From assembly GCF_013122565.1 (NCBI RefSeq), contig NZ_CP053258.1: 64,000 nucleotides of DNA; one strand, 5' to 3'. Below, one piece after another: positions 11,733 through 59,892 of the stretch. This DNA comes from Escherichia coli (GTDB lineage: Bacteria; Pseudomonadota; Gammaproteobacteria; Enterobacterales; Enterobacteriaceae). The translations under genes and the position numbers were made by a program. Under the pieces are notes generated by a model. It did no database searches. It had not been told where the DNA came from and worked only from the letters and a program-made list of their open reading frames with translations. The first letter of the stretch is position 1. The number at the start of each line of letters is the position of its first letter.

Positions 11733-11808
11733 TGGTGCCGATAAGAGGAGTCGAACCTCCGACCTTCGCATTACGAATGCGCTGCTCTACCAACTGAGCT
11801 ATATCGGC
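11733..11808 (-). tRNA. thrW: tRNA-Thr (anticodon CGU)
   Basis: Minus-strand sequence GCCGATATAGCTCAGTTGGTAGAGCAGCGCATTCGTAATGCGAAGGTCGGAGGTTCGACTCCTCTTATCGGCACCA folds as a canonical cloverleaf with CGT anticodon and CCA end. Confidence 0.95.
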
Positions 11809-43517: not shown

Positions 43518-48474
<4,957 letters not shown>

Positions 48475-48497
48475 AGAAAAATTCCTTTTATATTTTT

Positions 48498-50711
48498 TTA
48501 TTCAGAAACGTCCGGGGTAGGTAACGGGGCAATATCATCCGCAGTCATGGCTGTGCCGCCATCCGGATTCATATCAATGCCACTGCCAATGAGTTGCATA
48601 ACATCGCTGGTGTGCAGTAAAAGTTGTTTTCCGCAAAACTCAATCGAGCCATCCTTGTGTAATACAAGCGCTGCATTGCCGCAACGAAGGGTAAATTGAT
48701 CGCCAACATCCAGACGATATGTCGTTCCGACATTGATGGTTTGAGCCAGTTTGACGGAAAGACCATCATTTTTTGTGATGGTGGCATTACGGTCTTCTCC
48801 CACGCTGATGGTTTCATTTTTGACAATGGTTTTTATGCGATCGACCATGACCGTGTGGGTTTCATTGTTTTTTACCGTGGTATTGAGGTCTTTTTCCGCA
48901 TGGAACTTCACCTCTTCTGCCCCCGTTTTATCGTCAAAGCGCAGCATGTTTCCGTTGGTCGGCCCGCCATACAGCGAGTGGCTGAATATCCCGCTCTGCG
49001 AGGCCATACCCGGCAGTCCCCACGGCGGCATGGTGTCCTGGTTATAGGTGCGCCCTACAATGATCGGTAAATCCGGGTCGCCGTTTTTGAAATCCACCAG
49101 CACTTCCTGACCGATGCGCGGGATCTGGATCATGCCGAATCCTTTCCCTGCCCACGGATAGCTGACGCGGATCCAGCAGGAGCTGTTTTCGTCATTATTA
49201 CCGTAACGATCCCAGCCAAACTGCACCTTCACCCGTCCATATTTGTCCGTCCAGATTTCCTGCCCCGCCGGGCCGGTGACGATGGCGCTCTGCGGGCCTT
49301 TGGTGTGGGGTTTGCTCAGGGTTCGCTGTGGGCGGTAAACTTCGCTGGTTGGGTGCAGTTCAAACGTGGTGACATAGGTAAAATGCTGATCCTGGCCGCT
49401 GTGCTGCGCATTGTCCCGTAAAAACAGCGTGGTCTGTACCAGCAGGTATTCCTGATTAATTTCTGCCGTCGGGTGATTCATCAATGTAAAGGTGTACCCG
49501 GTCATGAGGGTACGGATATGACCGGCCCCATGTGCCCGGCTGCCTGGGCTACGCTGCGCTTCCATACGAATACGCGTCAACATCTCGCCTTCGCCCGTAG
49601 TGAAGTAATCACCAGGCCATTCGTAATGCTCGTATTCAGCATGACCGGTATCACGCGGACTGGCCACGGTACTTTTAAGCAGCGAACGAGGCTTCATAAA
49701 ATCAAAATCGTCCATCACCCACTTTCCAGTACGCAGCCTCTCACTGGCCGTAATGGTGTGAATAAATTCCTTATCCAGTTTCAGCCCTTCCTGGTGCCAC
49801 TCCACCAGTGGCGAGTCAGGGCACGCTTTATGACCATTGATGGCATCCGCCAGCACCAGCGTGTGGCTGTTCTCGCTGTGCTCAAACCACCAGTAAATTC
49901 CCCACTCCTGCATCAGGCGCTGGATGAAATCAAAATCCGTTTCACCGTACTGTACCTGCCAGGCACGAGGTGGATAATTTTCCACCAGCCGTTTTTCCAC
50001 CGGAAAGGAATATTCATCCAGTACTTCATCGAGAATATCCACCACGGTTTTATTCTGGAACGCTTTGTAGTCGCTGGTGTGGGTCAGCAGTTTCAGCCAC
50101 GGTTCAATGCGTAATTCATACGTTACCGAGCGGCCCTCATGGCCCACCACCCGCGCCGCTGTCACCAGCCCGCTGATATGCCGTTTGCCGCCGCCGTCCA
50201 GTTCGATATTGACGCACAGATCTTTGCCCACCATGGGCTGAAGCGGCAGGTTAGCAGCGGGGGAAACGTACCCCAGGTTCAGGGCGTCCGGCGTTTTAAG
50301 CTGTACTGTGTAGGAAAACAGATTCCCAAGCCCTTCCGAACCATTCATGCCTGCAAACAAAAGCATCTGCGGCGGCACCGCACTACCACTTACTGTGACG
50401 TTATGCGCCCCCGGACCACCTGCAGCAAGCGACGCCGCCGCATCCTGAACTGCACCAGCCATATCCGATATCCCTGCTGCGGCGGCTGCGGCTTGCGCAG
50501 CAGCTACTGCGGCTTTAACCAGACCTGACGGTTCCGGCAACGCACCAAACAGGTCCGCCGCTGCCTGTTCTACCATCTGCTCGGCTGCATCAGCTACATC
50601 GGTTGCGGCTGAACCAGGGCTTATACCACCACTTTCGCCAGCTATTGGTGGTGTGGTGATGACGGGTCCACCGTTTCCAACTGGTTTATTACCCGTAGAT
50701 ACAAAACTCAT
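48498..50711 (-). CDS. vgrG: T6SS spike protein VgrG (737 aa as the longest ORF, includes a ~100-aa Ala/Gly-rich N-terminal extension; true start uncertain)
   Basis: gp27/gp5-like VgrG body ([25 protein letters not shown]..., C-terminal ...[19 protein letters not shown]...); N-terminal [22 protein letters not shown]...[10 protein letters not shown] segment precedes the conserved start of the VgrG fold. Confidence 0.85.
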
Positions 50712-50735
50712 GATATTTGCTCCTTTAATACCGGA

Positions 50736-51122
50736 TTAAAATCTAGCCCCTGGTGGCCAAAAAATATAAGTAATAACTCTCCATTGCCCGTCTTTATAAT
50801 GAAACCAACATGTCAGATTCAAATCCCCCTGCAAATTCCAGAACATTTCCTTAATAGGAACATCTTGAAATTCAGGATCTGTTATGCGATAAGTTTGATT
50901 CAAGCCGATATAATACTCACCAACAAATTTATATCGTGGCCTCACGAACTCATGAGCAGGCGGCCCATATTTTTTCATAAAAAAGATGTCATTACTTCCA
51001 TCATGTATATCATTTTCTTCATAATATTTGGTGGATTGAGCAACTGCAGAAGGCTTGAAAACATTCACTGTAGTTATGTAAGTTATTGAAAGAAAAATCA
51101 CTATAATGCAGAAAAATTTCAT
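50736..51122 (-). CDS. Predicted periplasmic immunity protein 1 (signal peptide; paralogue of 52819..53181)
   Basis: 128 aa, MKFFCIIVIFLSITYITTVNVF... signal peptide; shares ...EFQDVPIKEMFWN..DLNLTCW.HYK.GQW.VI...WPPG..F with the paralogue; 4-nt overlap with upstream effector gene. Confidence 0.6.
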   Translation of the reverse strand: MKFFCIIVIFLSITYITTVNVFKPSAVAQSTKYYEENDIHDGSNDIFFMKKYGPPAHEFVRPRYKFVGEYYIGLNQTYRITDPEFQDVPIKEMFWNLQGDLNLTCWFHYKDGQWRVITYIFWPPGARF

Positions 51123-51820
51123 TTGGTTACATTCAATAAAGTAAATTTAGTTTCAGGCATTATGACATTCAACGTTATAGTTGCGTTTTTAAGGTATCGT
51201 TCCCGAAGCTCCATTCCCACATTCATCAACCCACTAATATCTCCAACATACGGAGACGAAGAATCATAATCATCATCTAAGTAACCAAGTACATGTCCGG
51301 CTTCATGAGGTATATTTACTTGCAACGTATTGTTACAGTTAATACATTTCGCTACTTTTTCCAGGTCCGCTGAATCAACATGAACCGTACTGTTTTTAAA
51401 ATCAACATATGTTCTTAAATCAGCACCAGGCAAAACCTTTGTTGCAATAACCAACCAGTCTTCATTCTGAGATGCAGAAATTATTCTTACATCAAAAGGC
51501 AAAGCTTTACCCTGAAATTTTTTAGCGAACTCAGATTCACCGGAAACAGAATAAGTTATTTTCCCATTCCATGCCTGCTGAACAGATAAATATATCGCTC
51601 GCATAAAAATAGCTTTTTCCCATATAGTCCAGTCATCTGTAACGGTATTATCCTTATACCACTCATACTTCCATCTTATCACAGCCGTAATCGAACCAGT
51701 ATTTTGATTTAATAAATACGTCCTCCTACCATCCTTATGTATAATGATATCGCCATCAATATTTGTTTTTTCATAGTATTCGGCCAGCAAACTATTCTCA
51801 TCATATTTAAGCTTGGTCAT
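51119..51820 (-). CDS. Candidate T6SS effector 1: HExxH zinc-metallopeptidase-like protein (233 aa)
   Basis: HEAGHVLGY motif plus conserved block LMNVGMELRERYL shared with the 268-aa paralogue; AT-rich; no signal peptide; followed by a signal-peptide protein. Confidence 0.6.
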   Translation of the reverse strand: MTKLKYDENSLLAEYYEKTNIDGDIIIHKDGRRTYLLNQNTGSITAVIRWKYEWYKDNTVTDDWTIWEKAIFMRAIYLSVQQAWNGKITYSVSGESEFAKKFQGKALPFDVRIISASQNEDWLVIATKVLPGADLRTYVDFKNSTVHVDSADLEKVAKCINCNNTLQVNIPHEAGHVLGYLDDDYDSSSPYVGDISGLMNVGMELRERYLKNATITLNVIMPETKFTLLNVTK

Positions 51821-52032
51821 TTTACTCTCATTAAATAATAATTATTTGTATCGAAAATATTATTTTATATATTACGAGTATTGCCCCTTCAGCCGCAGCG
51901 CATCCACATACCGTCCTTCACTGCAGGGCAAGATTACGAAAGCCCGCCCCCCGCAAGGACTGACGCGAGGTAGTTTCTGTCCATGGCTGCTTTTCTCATC
52001 TTACGTCTTAACCCTGCCTTGGTTTCGCCGTA

Positions 52033-52794
52033 CTACACCTGCCAGGCGCGGGGGGGATAATTTTCCACCAGCCGTTTTTCCACCGGAAAGGAATATTCAT
52101 CCAGTACTTCATCGAGAATATCCACCACGGTTTTATTCTGGAATGCTTTGTAGTCGCTGGTATGGGTCAGCAGCTTCAGCCATGGCTCAATGCGTAATTC
52201 ATACGTTACCGAACGGCCCTCATGGCCGACCACCCTCGCCGCCGTCACCAGCCCGCTGATATACCGTTTTCCGCCACCGTCCAGTTCAATGTTGACGCAC
52301 AGGTCTTTGCCCACCATGGGCTGAAGCGGCAGGTTAGCAGCGGGGGAAACGTACCCCAGGTTCAGGGCGTCCGGCGTTTTAAGCTGTACTGTGTAGGAAA
52401 ACAGATTCCCAAGCCCTTCCGAACCATTCATGCCTGCAAACAAAAGCAGCTGCGGCGGCACCGCACTACCACTTACTGTGACGTTATGCGCCCCCGGTCC
52501 ACCGGCAGCAATCGACGCCGCCGCATCCTGAACTGCACCAGCCATATCCGATATCCCTGCTGCGGCGGCTGCGGCTTGCGCAGCAGCTACTGCGGCTTTA
52601 ACCAGACCTGACGGTTCCGGCAACGCACCAAACAGGTCCGCCGCTGCCTGTTCTACCATCTGCTCGGCTGCATCAGCGACATCGGTTGCGGCTGAACCAG
52701 GGCTTATACCACCACTTTCGCCAGCTATTGGTGGTGTGGTGATGACGGGTCCACCGTTTCCAACTGGTTTATTACCCGTAGATACAAAACTCAT
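52033..52794 (-). pseudogene. vgrG: vgrG 5' fragment (N-terminal ~255 codons duplicated; body replaced)
   Basis: Near-identical to the first ~780 bp of vgrG at 49935-50711, including the Ala-rich N-terminal segment; homology breaks near 52017-52036. Confidence 0.75.
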
Positions 52795-52818
52795 GATATT
52801 TGCTCCTTTAATACCGGA

Positions 52819-53181
52819 TTAAAATTTGGATCCTGGCGGCCAATAAACTCGGGATATAACTATCCATTTACCATTTTTATAATGAAGCCAACATGTTAAA
52901 TTTAGATCTTTATTAACATTCCAAAACATCTCCTTAATAGGAACATCTTTAAATTCAGGATTATTTGAAGGGTAAGTCCGTTCTATGCCACCATAATAAA
53001 TACCTACAAAATCATGCCTTGGGTTTATAAAATAATGTTCAGGAGAACCATATTTTCTCACTAGTGAATCTTCATCATCCCCCCACTGAACATCTTTGTT
53101 ATGCATCTCACTGGCAAAAATATCTAGAGTTACAAGCAATATCAATAACGTAAAAAATAGAGCGATTTTCTTCTGGATCAT
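52819..53181 (-). CDS. Predicted periplasmic immunity protein 2 (signal peptide; paralogue of 50736..51122)
   Basis: 120 aa, MIQKKIALFFTLLILLVTLDIFA signal peptide; conserved C-terminal block with paralogue. Confidence 0.6.
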   Translation of the reverse strand: MIQKKIALFFTLLILLVTLDIFASEMHNKDVQWGDDEDSLVRKYGSPEHYFINPRHDFVGIYYGGIERTYPSNNPEFKDVPIKEMFWNVNKDLNLTCWLHYKNGKWIVISRVYWPPGSKF

Positions 53182-53984
53182 TTTATTACACTCGCAACAG
53201 AAAACGTAGTTAAGGGATATACTAAATTCAAGTCAATACAGACACCTTCCAGGTAGCGTTCCCGAAGTTCCATCCCAACATTCATTAACGCGGCAGTATC
53301 TATTTTATATTTAGACACAGGCTTACCAAACTTATCAAGTTCATATTCATCCTCCAGATAACGAATCATATGTCCAATTTCATGAACTATATTTACCTGA
53401 TAAAAACCACATATTGACTGATTCTCTGGAGCACATTTTTCTGATAACGAAGTATCTTTAAAATAAAAATGAGCAAACCGATTTTTCCAGTTAACATAAG
53501 GCCTGCCATCATCATTACCAGGAACGGTTCTTAATACGTCTACATTCCAGTGTTCTTTTTGATGGACCGGAATCATATTTATGCTGAAAGGCAATCTTTT
53601 ACTCTTGAATTTCTCAGCAAAATCAGAGTCCCCTGAGACAGATAAAAATATCTTATCATTCCATCCATAACAGATTGCAGAAAATGATTCATATATAAAA
53701 CTAACTTCATCCAGGTATGTCCAGTTATCTCCTACATTGTTCTGATTCACCCAGTTAAATTTCCATCTCATTAATAATGCAATGTCGCCTGTATCACTAT
53801 TCAGGATATATTCGCCATGTTCTGTATTCATCCTGAGACACTTCCCATCTTCTACGGTGTCAGGGCAAAACTTATGCATGAGTTTAATAAAGAATTCATG
53901 CGATAGATTTATTTTACTCTCTCCAACAACACCATCTACATGTGTTGTGAGCGAACCAGATTTATTCCCTGAAGAAGAACTCAT
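53178..53984 (-). CDS. Candidate T6SS effector 2: HExxH zinc-metallopeptidase-like protein (268 aa)
   Basis: HEIGHMIRY motif and LMNVGMELRERYL block; first ~10 codons and the 25 bp upstream resemble the vgrG 5' end (MSSSSGNKSGS vs [11 protein letters not shown]). Confidence 0.6.
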   Translation of the reverse strand: MSSSSGNKSGSLTTHVDGVVGESKINLSHEFFIKLMHKFCPDTVEDGKCLRMNTEHGEYILNSDTGDIALLMRWKFNWVNQNNVGDNWTYLDEVSFIYESFSAICYGWNDKIFLSVSGDSDFAEKFKSKRLPFSINMIPVHQKEHWNVDVLRTVPGNDDGRPYVNWKNRFAHFYFKDTSLSEKCAPENQSICGFYQVNIVHEIGHMIRYLEDEYELDKFGKPVSKYKIDTAALMNVGMELRERYLEGVCIDLNLVYPLTTFSVASVIK

Positions 53985-54311
53985 GCTATTGACTCCTTTA
54001 ATACTGGGGTAGAGATTTAGCCCACGACAGTCGTATTCCTGTTTTTTACATCCAATAAAATAGAATATTAATAAATTAGGATAATATTTTTACTTTACTC
54101 ACTCTACTTTCAATCTGAGTTCTCCGTACAATCGGGTTCTGACATTGAACCTTCCGACTGAAATACACCACTCCCCCCTCTATCCAGTCGCAACGCATCC
54201 ACATACCGCCCCCTTGCTGTTCTGCTGCCAGAACCATCCATGCCCCTGCTGCGCCTGCGTTAACATTTTTGCTAGCCAGCACGGTCACGGCAGGCAATTC
54301 CATGACATGTA

Positions 54312-54773
54312 CTACTCATCCGTACAACCCAGCCCCCGGCGCTGAACCACTTCACTGGCAAACGTTGCTCCGGTTTTTTTCATTATTCCCTGCTGGATTT
54401 TTTGTAACTCCGGGTATACAACCCGCTCACATTCATTTATTTCCCATATGTCACCCGTCTTAGGACTAACCGAAAACAACCCTAAATAGTCTGTTGCTCC
54501 AGCAGTCGGCGTATCATAGCCAAGACTAAAATCATAATATCCGGGATGAGGCGCATTGCCCTGACCATCCTGTAAATCTCCATCAATAAAAATCCCTTCC
54601 AGCGATAAATTATACTTTTGGTGCCTGAGTACAATAATAAGCAGTTTTTCCGCCTGTGCTTTCGTCATCCCTTCGCGGTTTATATCTGATAAATTAAATT
54701 CAGACGTATTCCCCTGAACGTAGCAAACCGCAGAGGCAAGAAGAAAAAAAACAAATATTATTTTACGGGGCAC
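54312..54773 (-). CDS. Predicted periplasmic immunity protein for the glucosaminidase-like effector (signal peptide)
   Basis: 153 aa, MPRKIIFVFFLLASAVCYVQG signal peptide; overlaps the upstream effector stop. Confidence 0.55.
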   Translation of the reverse strand: MPRKIIFVFFLLASAVCYVQGNTSEFNLSDINREGMTKAQAEKLLIIVLRHQKYNLSLEGIFIDGDLQDGQGNAPHPGYYDFSLGYDTPTAGATDYLGLFSVSPKTGDIWEINECERVVYPELQKIQQGIMKKTGATFASEVVQRRGLGCTDE

Positions 54774-55228
54774 GCCATTCTCCTTCCGACCATAATAATA
54801 ATGTCAGCAGTTTTTTTGGCATAATTATCTGTTCCGCCTGTGCTACTATCTCCAGAATTAAATCCGGCCTTTACCAGAGCATCACAGAAAGCCAAAGCAT
54901 CCTTTATGTCTCTGGCTGCATTACCATATTTTATTGCAAAAGATCGTGCACAGATTGAAAAAGACGGAAAAGTAGCCACCCGGGTTTTCTTGTTACCGTG
55001 CGGACGGATTTCGCCTGACTGAAATGATGCAGGGGCATGCAGGGAGAAATAGTTGTTATATTCCCTGGCAATACGGCCTGTACCATACTGGCTCTCCGCC
55101 GCGGCAAGCCCCAGAATATTTTCCACAGGAACATTAAGTTGTTTAGCGATTAATTCACATTCTTTCAGATGCTGCTGAACAAACCTTACTGCATTAACAT
55201 CATTACAGGCTTTGTCATAAGACCCCAT
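54758..55228 (-). CDS. Candidate T6SS glycoside-hydrolase effector (GH73 / FlgJ-type glucosaminidase-like, Tge-like)
   Basis: 156 aa; ILGLAAAESQYGTGRIAREYNNYFSLHA matches the GH73 catalytic-Glu region pattern (A..ES.wG.......NN.FG); no signal peptide; followed by a signal-peptide protein. Confidence 0.55.
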   Translation of the reverse strand: MGSYDKACNDVNAVRFVQQHLKECELIAKQLNVPVENILGLAAAESQYGTGRIAREYNNYFSLHAPASFQSGEIRPHGNKKTRVATFPSFSICARSFAIKYGNAARDIKDALAFCDALVKAGFNSGDSSTGGTDNYAKKTADIIIMVGRRMACPVK

Positions 55229-55255
55229 GATCCACTACTCCTTATCTGATTATTT

Positions 55256-56029
55256 TTAATGCTGCCGGATATCCAGCCGCAACGCATCCACATACCGCCC
55301 CTCGCTGTTCTGCTGCCAGAACCAGCCCTGCCCCTGCTGCGCCTGCGTCAGCATTTTGTCCGGCCAGCCCGGCCACGGCAGGTGGCGCACACCGGGCAGT
55401 TCCACTACCGGCACGTCCGGCAGGCCGGTGAGTTCCCGGCTACGCTGCGGTACACGTCGTAAGCCGCGTAGCCACTGCGCCCAGCGCGGCCCCGGTCGCC
55501 ACATCGCCCAGAGCTGGTCTGTCTGCTCCGCCAGTCGACCGCAGCGTTCTGTCTGTGGTGAGACATGAGCTGCCGTCAACTGCGCCAGCCAGTACAGCCA
55601 GCCCTTTGTGTCATCCAGGCTCTCTTCCAGCCATTCCCGCCCGGCACGCTGGTAAATCACCAGTGGCCACGACCTGCCCGTACTGTCACGTGAGGCGGTC
55701 AGCACCCCGGTCAGCCACTCATCGCGCCCGCCAATGGGGAGAAATCCCGGCGATAATACAAAGCTCCACGGTAGCGGATGGTGTTCCGGCACCTCCGTTT
55801 TCTCGCGCGGTGACAGGTGCATCCAACCGTCATTTACTCCGGTTTTCGCAGCATCCGTTCCTTCCGGCAGAACAATATGCCGCCCCTGTCCCAGCCACGT
55901 CTGCTGGTTCAGCCACGCCTGCCACACCTGCCCATCGTTCGCGCTCACCCGCCAGCGCACGTAGTCCCGCTGATCCGGCAGTCTGCCGAACATCGCCGGA
56001 ACCGATACCACCGCAGCCCGGCGCATCAC
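55256..56029 (-). CDS. tagF: T6SS-associated protein TagF-like (DUF2094)
   Basis: 257 aa directly downstream of and overlapping tssM; 3'-end sequence recurs as ~30-100 bp remnants at 54196-54300 and 51888-51912. Confidence 0.6.
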   Translation of the reverse strand: MMRRAAVVSVPAMFGRLPDQRDYVRWRVSANDGQVWQAWLNQQTWLGQGRHIVLPEGTDAAKTGVNDGWMHLSPREKTEVPEHHPLPWSFVLSPGFLPIGGRDEWLTGVLTASRDSTGRSWPLVIYQRAGREWLEESLDDTKGWLYWLAQLTAAHVSPQTERCGRLAEQTDQLWAMWRPGPRWAQWLRGLRRVPQRSRELTGLPDVPVVELPGVRHLPWPGWPDKMLTQAQQGQGWFWQQNSEGRYVDALRLDIRQH

Positions 56030-59000
56030 AGCGCTCGCTCCGGGCAGGCGAAGCGTTGCAGTAGCCCACGGTTCACCGGGTCAAAATCCCGTCCTGCGGT
56101 GATTTCCAGCACCACCCGCCGCCCGTCAAAGCTATATTCAACCTGCTGTGTTCCCCGTACCGCCGTCTCCTGCGCGTTACCCGCATCCAGCAGGTGAAAC
56201 AGCGCCCACGGTCCGTTAGTCAGCAGCGTCGAGGTGTCCTGGCGGATGCGCGGGCTGGCGGTGATTTCCGCCATTGAGCCGTTGCGCGGCCCCGGCCAGT
56301 TCACTTTCAGCGGTCTGACCGGGCCGTGAGCGTAACGCAGCACCTGACCGTCGATATCAATCACCAGTTCAGTGATTGCAGGGTCCATATCCACGACGCG
56401 GACCTGCATCGCCCAGGAAAACTTTTTCCCGCCTTCACCGTTAAAAAAAACGCTGCGGATCTGTTTCGCCTCCTGAAACGGCGTCAGGTCCGGCCCCTGT
56501 AAGGTCATGTTGCCTTCGGTCGGTTTGTAGCGCCACGGGTTGCTGGCGGTGTCCGCCAGCGGGGCCAGTTGCTTCGTCCAGAACGCATCCAGCACACCGC
56601 CGCTGGCAAAGATATGGTTAAAATCGTCCGCGCTGACCTCCTGCGGGCTGTCGGTAAAGGGGTAGCGCCCGTCAATAGCATCACGGCACTCATCGCCAAT
56701 CACCGCTTCCATCTGCGCGTTCAGCACTTCACCGGTGCCGGCGTTGATTTTGCGCGTTCCCTGCTGCGTGAGATCCAGCAAAATATTTTTCAGCGGTGCG
56801 GGCAGTTTTGCCGCCTCCAGTTGCAGTTTATCCGCCGCCGAAATACGGCCAGGTAATGTGCTCGCTGCCAGCGCGCTGTCGGCGATGGTGAGCTGGGTGT
56901 AATATTCATTGAGCATTGTCAGCAGCGAATTTAACTGCGGCGCGCCACCAGTCTGCCCGCTGTCTGTCCGCCCGGAAACCACTTCCCGCAAGGCGGCGAA
57001 ACGGTCATCCACCAGTGATTTCTCCAGCCGCTCTTCCGGGTGGATGTCCTGTAACAGCTTTGCCGTCTGCCCCGCTTTTCCCACATTGCCGGAGAGCCGG
57101 TCCTGCGCACGCTGGGCCATCTGCTTTTGTCTGGCCTGCGCATCCAGCGGCGGCACCAGCGTGGTCTGCTCCACCACCGCTTTACTCAGGCGCATCAGCG
57201 GGGAATCCGGCGAGGCCAGGGTACGCAGCACCTGAAGGTCATACGCCAGCCCGGGACTGCCGTCTTCCCCGGCACTGTTGATGCTGTGAATACTTGCCAG
57301 AAAATCCTGCCAGCGGCGGGCATATTCAGCCAGGTACAGGCGGCGTACCTCACGGGTAACCGGGAGTTCCTGCCCCGGCAACTGGCTCATCACAATATCC
57401 GTTGTTTTTTTTTGCGCGTTTTCCCGGCCCATCACCCAGGCATCGTCCGCTGATGCGGCTGCGACAAACTCCGACAGCCGTTTGTCGAACAGTTCCCGGT
57501 AGCCTTCGCGAGTGAAGATGCCGGGCACGCCCCTATCCAGCGGCGCGCCATCCGTGCGGACAAAAACCGTTCCCGCATCCGCGCCCACAGCGCGAACCAG
57601 CGAAAACTCCTGCGGTGCTTCGCTCTCCATGGAAGCCAGGGCTCGAGTGTAGATACGCTCGGTGCTGGTATGGCCGTCAAGGAAGGCTCGCGCCTGGCGG
57701 ATCAGCCCCTCATCTTTTTCCCAGGGCGAATGCACCACGCGGCTGCCGTCAAACAGGGCATCGATATGCTCCAGCACGGCGGCGCGACCGCCGAACTCCG
57801 CCACGCTGTCGCGGTTGTCCAGGTCGTTCAGCACCCAGGCGTGGATCTCCGCCGCGTTGTATTTATCCTCGTGGTCCTTATCGAGGTTCAGCAACAGATA
57901 AACATGCAGGGCGTCATAGGCGGCTTTGCTGTCCTGACGCGCAATCGCATCCGAAAGCACGTATTCCATGCGTTTCACCAGCGGTGGCAGCAGTAACTGG
58001 TCCAGCAGGCGGTCATACAGGGATGCGACGCTCTCCATCACCGGCGGAACGCTGTAAAGACCATAACGCCAGGCCAGCGGCGGCGAGTCCGGGTCCAGTC
58101 CCGGCCAGGCAGAGAGCGCCCGTGCCTGGTTCAGCAGGGCCGGAACAGGCTGCATAGCAGGTTTTCCGGTATAGGCTTTGACATCACCATCCAGTTGGGT
58201 CGTCCGGCTGGCGATTTCATTCAGATAACCGCTGTTACCCTGCTGGCTGCCCTGCATTCCCTGCCACAACCAGAAAGCCAGCGCCAGTACCAGCAGATGC
58301 CCGCCAGTGCGCAGCAGGCGGTAACGCCAGGCCCACTGAAGGTTCGGCTCCACCAGGTGCGCTTCGCGGAAGATAAACTGCGTCAGTAGATCGTGCAGGA
58401 AATAGCTGCGGTTGCCGTCCGGCAGGGTATGGGATGGGGAATCAGCCTTCCCTTTGATAGCACGGACAAAACGCTGCCAGATGCCCGTCTTGTCAGCCAC
58501 GGCGTCTGCCTGCGCCTGCGCGGCGCTGGTAAAAAATACGCCGCGCAGGGTGTTGTTAAGCTGGGTGGCGTCAAATTTTGAATCGAGGAAAATCTGCTCA
58601 ATGGCTTCCAGCAGCGGCGCACCCAGCGCGGCAAATTCACGCGGGAAGCGATAGAGCCGCTGGCGGCTTTTAAGGTCGTACTCTTCCTGCAACCGGGTAT
58701 CCAGCCCCTGATCCAGCCGCAGGGTCAGGTTTGCCAGTTCCTGGCTACAGAGCGCATGCAGCGACTGCGGATCGCTGGCGTGACGCCTGCGGCTGTATGG
58801 CAGAGTAAAGCCCCAGACCTGGGCGCGCAGGTGGCTGGTCAGCCCGTGGAAATACTCCGTAAAGCCCGGCAGCAGATCCATCTTGGTGACAACCAGATAG
58901 ACCGGAAAACGAATACCCAGCGTCTCCCGCAGTTCCGCCAGCCGCGCACGCAGGGCCGCACAGGCAGCCAGCCGTTCCGCCGGGGACTGCGCAGTCAGAT

Positions 59001-59892
59001 CCGCCACGTTCAGCGTCAGGATCACGCCGTTGAGCGGTGCGCCGGGGCGGTGTTTACGCAGCAGTCCCAGAAACCCGTGCCACTCCCCGGCGTTGCGCTG
59101 GGTCGCGCTGATTTCGCCACCGTCATCGTGACGGGCATAGCGCCCGGCGGTGTCAATAAGCACTGCTTCGTTGGTAAACCACCAGTCGCAATGCAGCGTT
59201 CCGCCGCCCGGCACGGTGAGGATATGCGCGGTTTGCTCCATCTGCTCCGCCAGCGGAAACTGCAATCCGGTGTTGAGCAGTGCTGTGGTTTTACCGTCGC
59301 CGGGGCTACCGATAACCATGAACCAAGGCAGTTCGTACAGAAAACGTTTTCCTTCCAGTACGTTACGCCAGCCCGGCAGGTCTACGCGCAGCTGTTTCAG
59401 TTGCCGAATAGCGCGAGTGACAATATGGCTGACGGTGCGTAAGTCGGCTTTAATTTCCCCGGCCACCGGTACGTCTTCCCCGCGCGGATGCAGGAAACGG
59501 CGCAGCAGTTGTTCGTCCAGACGCAGCGCCCGCCACAGCCGGTACAGGCCATACAGCGCATAAGACAGAAGGATCAGGCCGATAAGCGTCAGACGCAGCC
59601 ACAGCGGCGCAAATGGATGAACATCACCGAAAGCCAGCAACGGTGAGACAAAGCCGATAACCAGGCACAGAACCGTAACGCCAATGATGCTCATAGACCA
59701 GTTAACCAGCCACAGTGCGAGGAACATCAGTAACAGAACGATGGTGACTAACCGACTTCCCACGGACGCGAGTGGATGCAGGGTGTCAAACGCGACCAGC
59801 GGCCCAATAAACCAGACCAGCAACGCCAGCATTACCAGGCCAACAATGGCCAGCGCGCGGCGGGAAAACAGCATACTGAGAAATTTTTGCAT
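56026..59892 (-). CDS. tssM: T6SS membrane core protein TssM (IcmF-like)
   Basis: 1288 aa; N-terminal TM helices, Walker A GSPGDGKTT, large periplasmic C-terminal region; GC-rich. Confidence 0.9.
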   Translation of the reverse strand: MQKFLSMLFSRRALAIVGLVMLALLVWFIGPLVAFDTLHPLASVGSRLVTIVLLLMFLALWLVNWSMSIIGVTVLCLVIGFVSPLLAFGDVHPFAPLWLRLTLIGLILLSYALYGLYRLWRALRLDEQLLRRFLHPRGEDVPVAGEIKADLRTVSHIVTRAIRQLKQLRVDLPGWRNVLEGKRFLYELPWFMVIGSPGDGKTTALLNTGLQFPLAEQMEQTAHILTVPGGGTLHCDWWFTNEAVLIDTAGRYARHDDGGEISATQRNAGEWHGFLGLLRKHRPGAPLNGVILTLNVADLTAQSPAERLAACAALRARLAELRETLGIRFPVYLVVTKMDLLPGFTEYFHGLTSHLRAQVWGFTLPYSRRRHASDPQSLHALCSQELANLTLRLDQGLDTRLQEEYDLKSRQRLYRFPREFAALGAPLLEAIEQIFLDSKFDATQLNNTLRGVFFTSAAQAQADAVADKTGIWQRFVRAIKGKADSPSHTLPDGNRSYFLHDLLTQFIFREAHLVEPNLQWAWRYRLLRTGGHLLVLALAFWLWQGMQGSQQGNSGYLNEIASRTTQLDGDVKAYTGKPAMQPVPALLNQARALSAWPGLDPDSPPLAWRYGLYSVPPVMESVASLYDRLLDQLLLPPLVKRMEYVLSDAIARQDSKAAYDALHVYLLLNLDKDHEDKYNAAEIHAWVLNDLDNRDSVAEFGGRAAVLEHIDALFDGSRVVHSPWEKDEGLIRQARAFLDGHTSTERIYTRALASMESEAPQEFSLVRAVGADAGTVFVRTDGAPLDRGVPGIFTREGYRELFDKRLSEFVAAASADDAWVMGRENAQKKTTDIVMSQLPGQELPVTREVRRLYLAEYARRWQDFLASIHSINSAGEDGSPGLAYDLQVLRTLASPDSPLMRLSKAVVEQTTLVPPLDAQARQKQMAQRAQDRLSGNVGKAGQTAKLLQDIHPEERLEKSLVDDRFAALREVVSGRTDSGQTGGAPQLNSLLTMLNEYYTQLTIADSALAASTLPGRISAADKLQLEAAKLPAPLKNILLDLTQQGTRKINAGTGEVLNAQMEAVIGDECRDAIDGRYPFTDSPQEVSADDFNHIFASGGVLDAFWTKQLAPLADTASNPWRYKPTEGNMTLQGPDLTPFQEAKQIRSVFFNGEGGKKFSWAMQVRVVDMDPAITELVIDIDGQVLRYAHGPVRPLKVNWPGPRNGSMAEITASPRIRQDTSTLLTNGPWALFHLLDAGNAQETAVRGTQQVEYSFDGRRVVLEITAGRDFDPVNRGLLQRFACPERAL

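Follow-up and report, generated by a model that had tools for sequence, protein, structure and literature searches.

The closest described relatives of the genes considered here come from Salmonella. A survey of this genus predicted two type VI secretion system (T6SS) cargo candidates, each of 243 amino acids (aa), in variable region 2 (VR2) of Salmonella pathogenicity island 6 (SPI-6). They were labelled 'Reprolysin_4' (SESEF3709_03438) and 'Peptidase_M64' (NCTC7411_03656), and the genes downstream of them carry a signal peptide or a transmembrane segment (PMC10469887). 'Tge2 and Peptidase M64' are also mentioned together in VR2 (PMC11669294). A 10k-genome study that cites the survey lists 'STox_19, metallopeptidase' as an antibacterial cargo effector in 164 genomes and 198 loci (PMC12994826, S2 Table). 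These Salmonella papers, which date from 2023 and 2026, contain predictions only. We analyzed a window of 64,000 nt of the Escherichia coli contig NZ_CP053258.1 (assembly GCF_013122565.1), in which two such gene pairs lie in tandem: Eff1 with Imm1 (cassette 1) and Eff2 with Imm2 (cassette 2). We estimate the probability at about three in four that these are stacked cassettes, each coding for a periplasm-acting zinc metallopeptidase that is T6SS cargo and for an exported inhibitor that neutralizes it. The four genes are the following.

51119-51820, minus strand: Eff1, predicted zinc metallopeptidase effector of 233 aa, paralogue of Eff2
50736-51122, minus strand: Imm1, predicted exported immunity protein of 128 aa, paralogue of Imm2
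53178-53984, minus strand: Eff2, predicted zinc metallopeptidase effector of 268 aa
52819-53181, minus strand: Imm2, predicted exported immunity protein of 120 aa

The Salmonella SPI-6 candidates occupy the same position, after tagF/Tge2 and before vgrG, and are of similar size (243 aa versus 233-268). In Salmonella Okatie (loci L007/L008) the 243-aa proteins are 47-56% identical to Eff1/Eff2, are accompanied by homologous immunity genes in the same synteny, and are likewise two tandem paralogues with an ISAs1-type transposase gene between them. The weak Pfam labels of the Salmonella papers also appear for some members of the family analyzed here, and the serovars Senftenberg and Sanjuan of the survey appear among the immunity clusters. 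Thus, the family in the window is almost certainly the Salmonella candidate family, matched by position, size and homology rather than by the published accessions, and the SPI-6 candidates are probably STox_19. The first-pass annotation of this DNA did not recognize the pair as a named effector family; candidates of the family had in fact already been listed in the Salmonella surveys. The 'amidase' label published for Salmonella is not supported by any test. What is new here is the Escherichia members, which are not described in the Salmonella papers. Among 5,426 complete E. coli genomes, four cassette types were found, in 34 (type A), 3 (type B), 19 (type C) and 88 (type D) genomes, always annotated as 'hypothetical protein'.

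Another likeness is to the C-terminal metallopeptidase of VgrG2b from Pseudomonas aeruginosa, a T6SS-delivered HExxH domain that acts in the periplasm and has an exported immunity protein, PA0261 (PMC6899460). In VgrG2b, however, the domain is fused to VgrG and assigned to the M35 or M91 type, whereas Eff1 and Eff2 would be cargo. We detected no homology of Eff1/Eff2 to VgrG2b and no Pfam match to M35/M91.

Both gene pairs were present as the first-pass annotation had described them. The four open reading frames (ORFs) lie on the minus strand, and in each pair the effector and immunity genes overlap by 4 nt (ATGA). Their GC content is 0.33-0.36, compared to 0.54 for vgrG and 0.65 for tagF, in agreement with the AT-richness claimed for them. 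The paralogy also held, with an identity of 39% between the two effectors (E=3e-55) and of 44% between the two immunity proteins (E=8e-42). The HExxH motif and the two shared blocks were found in both copies. In Eff1, HEAGH covers residues 172-176 (nt 51293-51307) and reads on as HEAGHVLGYLD. In Eff2, HEIGH covers residues 201-205 (nt 53370-53384) and is followed by D212-E213-Y214. The shared C-terminal block of the effectors, LMNVGMELRERYL, lies at 51191-51229 in Eff1 and 53250-53288 in Eff2; the block of the small proteins reads PIKEMFW...DLNLTCW. Both effector ORFs are intact, with all catalytic residues present.

Searches with single sequences said little about the effectors, which have a size of about 27-31 kDa. 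Eff1 and Eff2 gave no match in Pfam, even at E<=10, or among the PDB sequences, and neither effectors nor immunity proteins matched NCBIfam, PADLOC or PHROGs. A word-indexed search returned only six clusters of relatives. An exhaustive profile search over 1.84 billion representatives found 557 effector relatives at E<=1e-3 and 246 at E<=1e-10, mostly stand-alone proteins of about 215 aa. In an alignment of 93 sequences (Eff2 numbering), H201, E202, H205 and G237 are conserved in 93/93; D212 and Y214 in 92, E213 in 91, R243 in 90 and R241 in 87. The Met-turn candidate M234 is present in 80 and replaced by Leu in 9. The position +8 of HExxH is Gly in 66/93, and Eff2 has the conserved Asp at +12. 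Since H, E and H are invariant in all aligned homologues, HExxH is not a chance match.

The predicted fold of the effector corresponds to a zincin/metzincin catalytic domain, which bears out, at the level of structure prediction, the zincin-like fold proposed in the first-pass annotation. The metzincin clan includes adamalysins, pappalysins/ulilysin, astacins, snapalysin, serralysins, matrix metalloproteinases (MMPs) and igalysins/M64. The profile match to Peptidase M64 (igalysin, PF09471) was not significant, and Eff1/Eff2 had no match to Reprolysin/M12B (PF13574, PF13583) within the threshold. Among the 93 relatives, at E<=0.001, Reprolysin_2 matched 3 and Reprolysin_4 matched 2. The Tox-MPTase, M91, M35 and DUF4157 models of Pfam matched neither the window proteins nor the 93 relatives, and DUF4157 proteins appeared only in the distant Foldseek tail (ranks 48-50, 14-16% identity). 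Judging by the predicted fold, the effector is a metzincin-like zinc peptidase of an unclassified family. The closest solved folds belong to eukaryotic proteases and to extracellular proteases of pathogens. They are the reason to consider an anti-eukaryotic protease that cleaves host proteins, like ADAM/MMP-type metzincins or NleD-type effectors. We find this highly improbable: a host-directed toxin needs no dedicated, exported and co-evolving immunity protein, members of the family occur in free-living Flavobacterium and in environmental metagenomes, and the flanking cassettes are antibacterial.

The hydropathy of the proteins argues for a periplasmic site of action. Eff1 and Eff2 have no N-terminal hydrophobic export segment on the Kyte-Doolittle scale. 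The N-termini of Imm1 and Imm2 are strongly hydrophobic (12-residue maxima of 2.95 and 3.24) and are followed by a small-x-small site, VAQ/S or IFA/S, as read from hydropathy. This agrees with the signal peptides that had been assigned to the small proteins. For the immunity proteins, a BLIP/BamE-like alpha-beta domain is predicted, and this fold is combined with the export signal. Neither Pfam, searched with single sequences, nor the PDB, searched with single sequences and with the immunity profile, gave a match. The possibility that the small proteins are homologues of housekeeping lipoproteins, raised in the first-pass annotation as an objection, came out in part: the predicted fold is common to the housekeeping proteins BamE/OsmE, but no sequence similarity to inhibitors of the BLIP/BamE fold was found in the PDB or Pfam. 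BtiO, an immunity protein of the Bacteroides fragilis T6SS (PDB 9uu1; PMC12541434), is listed with inhibitors of the BLIP/BamE (SmpA_OmlA) fold; it differs in that it neutralizes a non-enzymatic effector targeting OmpA, not a protease.

The immunity-family gene directly follows the effector gene in 11 of 11 loci, usually with the 4-nt overlap. The loci comprise the two window cassettes, E. coli types C and D, two from Salmonella, one from Enterobacter, two Flavobacterium species, Capnocytophaga and one metagenome contig. The immunity N-terminus is a Sec-type signal in the enterics and carries a lipobox in Bacteroidota and in the metagenome contig. Type C was the only apparent exception, and it is resolved because its start is mis-called in RefSeq. 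In E. coli R32_14_1F (locus L002, 9413-9470) the annotated immunity gene apparently lacks its true start; read from an in-frame ATG that lies 57 nt further upstream, the protein gains a signal peptide (MKLIYAVIIFLIVGGAKNS) and the gene again overlaps the effector gene by ATGA.

We also compared how the two partners diverge. Among the enteric paralogues (window, L002, L008, L010, L014), the C-terminal domains of the immunity proteins are 54-75% identical and the effectors 36-56%; the exception is the orthologous pair of window type A and Enterobacter, with 77% for the effectors and 74% for the immunity proteins. That the immunity proteins are more conserved than the effectors is the reverse of the usual polymorphic-toxin pattern, and cross-protection is a possibility. 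Effector and immunity divergence correlate with r=0.76 over 55 non-independent pairs and with r=0.51 within the enterics. We do not take this as proof of co-evolution, as shared phylogeny alone can produce such a correlation. The conserved Cys97 of the enteric immunity proteins was considered as an MMP-like 'cysteine switch' and rejected, the residue being absent from the Flavobacterium and metagenome homologues. In Enterobacter sp. ENT03, a second immunity-family homologue (L010, 6219-6491) lies about 1.5 kb upstream of the effector-immunity pair and is perhaps an orphan immunity gene, perhaps what is left of a decayed cassette.

The connection with the T6SS was assessed in other genomes, as the first-pass annotation had proposed. 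The contexts were sampled by exact-protein look-ups rather than in a systematic survey; a conserved-stretch search for related loci with an alignment of 8 sequences returned only 5 loci. It turned out that the tagF-to-vgrG interval always holds the pair in E. coli, Escherichia sp. E1V33, Enterobacter sp. ENT03 and Salmonella Okatie, the Salmonella homologues being located in SPI-6. Flavobacterium sp. 1355 and F. zhairuonense have the effector gene after TssD(Hcp) and the immunity gene after the effector gene, and VgrG lies 1-3 kb beyond. In a metagenomic locus (L015), the pair stands among three TssD genes within a full T6SSiii cluster, and another homologue lies near PAAR-like, DUF2169 and TsiV genes. 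Thus, linkage to the T6SS was found in independent lineages, the Enterobacteriaceae and the T6SSiii of Bacteroidota. An unexported enzyme with an exported partner and repeated, independent linkage to the T6SS are together the signature of a periplasm-acting T6SS cargo effector. The claim of a T6SS effector/immunity pair with a periplasmic immunity protein is therefore supported.

We propose the following mechanism. The T6SS spike and tube would fire the signal-less Eff1/Eff2 into a neighboring Gram-negative cell, where the effector would act in the periplasm. In the predicted catalytic center, HExxH would lie on the active-site helix, the Asp of D-E-Y would be the third zinc ligand, and a mostly conserved Met follows further on. 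The producer would export Imm1/Imm2, with their BLIP/BamE-type inhibitor fold, through Sec, and these would bind and block the toxin arriving from sister cells. The best candidates for the substrate are peptidoglycan, cleaved in its peptide part, or an envelope protein associated with the wall, such as Lpp, OmpA or Pal. Some homologues carry N-terminal LysM (3-4 homologues) or PG_binding_1 (1) domains, and in one a long C-terminal tail resembles OmpA on visual inspection. These domains, the tail and the adjacent peptidoglycan glucosaminidase fit an action close to the wall.

Several points weigh against this proposal. The HExxH-to-Asp spacer varies from 5 to more than 20 residues across the family and the Met (M234) is not invariant, so the effector departs from the strict metzincin signature. 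PG_binding_1 is also the pro-domain of MMPs, and the known metzincins act on proteins and not on peptidoglycan. For LysM and PG_binding_1 domains at the N-terminus of T6SS toxins, a role in VgrG loading instead of wall binding has been proposed (PMC10673891). Because LysM/PG_binding_1 may serve for loading and metzincins cleave proteins, the argument for peptidoglycan is weak. We go no further than to propose a periplasmic zinc peptidase, whose foremost candidate substrates are peptidoglycan stem peptides or wall-tethering proteins. The delivery partner of cassette 2 is unclear because the adjoining vgrG is truncated. A literature search returned no experimental work on the toxicity, secretion, immunity or zinc binding of any family member. 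Finally, the distant loci L003 and L017 have no T6SS genes within the visible flanks of 8 kb. Together with a homologue from the Gram-positive Mogibacterium in the Foldseek list and the occurrence of the immunity fold in BamE/OsmE, these loci would suit an endogenous envelope protease with a regulatory inhibitor, or a toxin exported by another route. This explanation seems to us quite improbable, since an enzyme without an export signal and a partner with one are the hallmark of injected toxins, the T6SS linkage is seen independently in different phyla, in T6SSi as well as T6SSiii loci, and the distribution is patchy and polymorphic, with low GC.

Apart from the four genes, the region contains the following features, from upstream to downstream.

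56026-59892, minus strand: tssM, T6SS core gene (RefSeq annotation)
55256-56029, minus strand: tagF, T6SS core gene (TIGR03373 TagF match and RefSeq annotation)
54758-55228, minus strand: glucosaminidase, Tge2-like (weak NCBIfam FlgJ-type match; 'glucosaminidase domain-containing protein' in RefSeq)
54312-54773, minus strand: exported immunity protein of the glucosaminidase (its Salmonella counterpart carries Pfam T6SS_Tgi2PP)
54181-54294, minus strand: relic of a second tagF 3' end, lying between the glucosaminidase cassette and Eff2
52022-52818, minus strand: truncated copy of the vgrG 5' part (ORF 52033-52794, 253 codons) with a 24-nt spacer (52795-52818)
51924-52021, strand not assigned: 98-nt remnant of an ISAs1-family (H-repeat) transposase gene
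48498-50711, minus strand: full-length vgrG, 737 aa, located 24 nt downstream of Imm1 (so annotated by RefSeq in near-identical loci)
48031-48474, minus strand: DcrB/Eag-type chaperone gene (RefSeq annotation)
43871-48010, minus strand: Rhs effector gene with a C-terminal deaminase-like domain (RefSeq annotation)

The genes tagF and tssM (55256-59892) form the upstream boundary of the variable region. The glucosaminidase and its partner (54312-55228) are a third neighboring cassette acting in the periplasm, and the full-length vgrG is likely the spike partner of the locus. The C-terminus of the Rhs protein (43871-44350) is a deaminase-like toxin domain with HAE...CxxC (Pfam Deam_C, E=1.9e-15). 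Promoter and terminator scans gave nothing above the shuffled expectation, Rfam had no match in 48000-56500, and the sole tRNA in the window is tRNA-Thr (11733-11808).

The arrangement of the region points to how the cassettes were brought together. The segment 52022-52818 duplicates 49939-50735: 773 nt of the vgrG 5' part match at 96.6% identity and the 24-nt spacer at 100%. With VgrG as the query, tblastn aligned the truncated copy at 95% identity over 268 aa. Beyond the spacer, into the immunity genes, the similarity drops to the level of paralogues (74%, 66%, then noise). Thus, the earlier statement that both cassettes lie just upstream of vgrG is accurate for cassette 1, which precedes the full gene, and not for cassette 2, which precedes the truncated copy (52022-52794). 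This position of cassette 2 points to stacking by recombination. The vgrG copy is cut at 52022, exactly at the start of the ISAs1 remnant, and some 2,600 E. coli genomes contain ISAs1/ISEc1/ISEc5 transposase genes to which the remnant is 95-97% identical. In Salmonella, the ISAs1-type transposase gene between the two paralogous 243-aa cassettes is intact (L008, 7672-8844). This suggests that the ISAs1 family takes part in the stacking. In our proposal, recombination within the conserved 5' end of vgrG, in which an ISAs1 element took part, would have stacked the two cassettes and left the truncated vgrG copy between them.

The other boundary of the variable region shows a similar pattern. The tagF relic is 88.6% identical over 114 nt to 55270-55382 and is annotated as a pseudogene in L001 and L002, so that the glucosaminidase cassette is bracketed by repeats of the tagF end, as the metallopeptidase cassettes are by vgrG 5' repeats. 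It seems that cassettes come in by recombination at the conserved ends of core genes (tagF, vgrG). A search upstream of Eff2 for a relic immunity gene revealed none; the sequence there is the tagF 3' relic. The N-terminal 25 or so residues of Eff2 (MSSSSGNKSGSL..., nt 53910-53984) resemble the VgrG N-terminus and have low confidence in the structure model. The DNA at 53961-54023 is 76% identical over 66 nt to 50685-50749, and the extension is absent from the Salmonella orthologue. Probably, it is a scar of recombination by which the gene received the start and the ribosome-binding site of vgrG.

The same organization raises the question of whether cassette 2, and possibly both, is a displaced relic. 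A newer vgrG-linked cassette could have recombined in, so that the older effector lost its dedicated spike partner and the genes were kept mainly for immunity against neighbors firing the toxin. The truncated vgrG and the insertion sequence remnant after cassette 2 would fit this, as would the presence of cassette 2 in just 3 of the 5,426 E. coli genomes. In public data, full effectors are greatly outnumbered by immunity-family genes, single members of three Salmonella immunity clusters are each found on about 950 to more than 1000 contigs, and many effector entries are partial. In addition, the extra immunity homologue of Enterobacter has no effector match reported beside it. We nevertheless regard such displacement as unlikely. 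The intact effector ORFs retain every catalytic residue and Eff2 has a strong ribosome-binding site. Both cassettes are on the same strand within the tssM-to-rhs string, with no excess of terminators, and the full vgrG is just 2.1 kb downstream. Moreover, the two-cassette arrangement persists in Escherichia sp. E1V33. In that strain (L009), the A+B arrangement is 95-97% identical to the window and the intervening vgrG relic is much shorter. None of the 5,426 complete E. coli genomes in RefSeq combines types A and B as the window does. E. coli R32_14_1F carries types A and C with a vgrG pseudogene.

If active delivery of periplasmic zinc peptidases is confirmed, a metzincin protease would be a biochemically new class of periplasm-acting T6SS toxin, next to the known amidases, glycosidases, transpeptidases and lipases, and would be accompanied by a matched inhibitor family. 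The practical value is modest and lies in a testable candidate with clear point mutants; specialists would hardly be surprised, as the Salmonella surveys already list the family. Confirmation would also give names to 'hypothetical' genes in E. coli, Salmonella, Enterobacter, Citrobacter and many Bacteroidota. How a T6SS arsenal grows is also visible from this locus: the conserved ends of tagF and vgrG serve new cassettes as sites of entry by recombination, and truncated copies of these genes remain.

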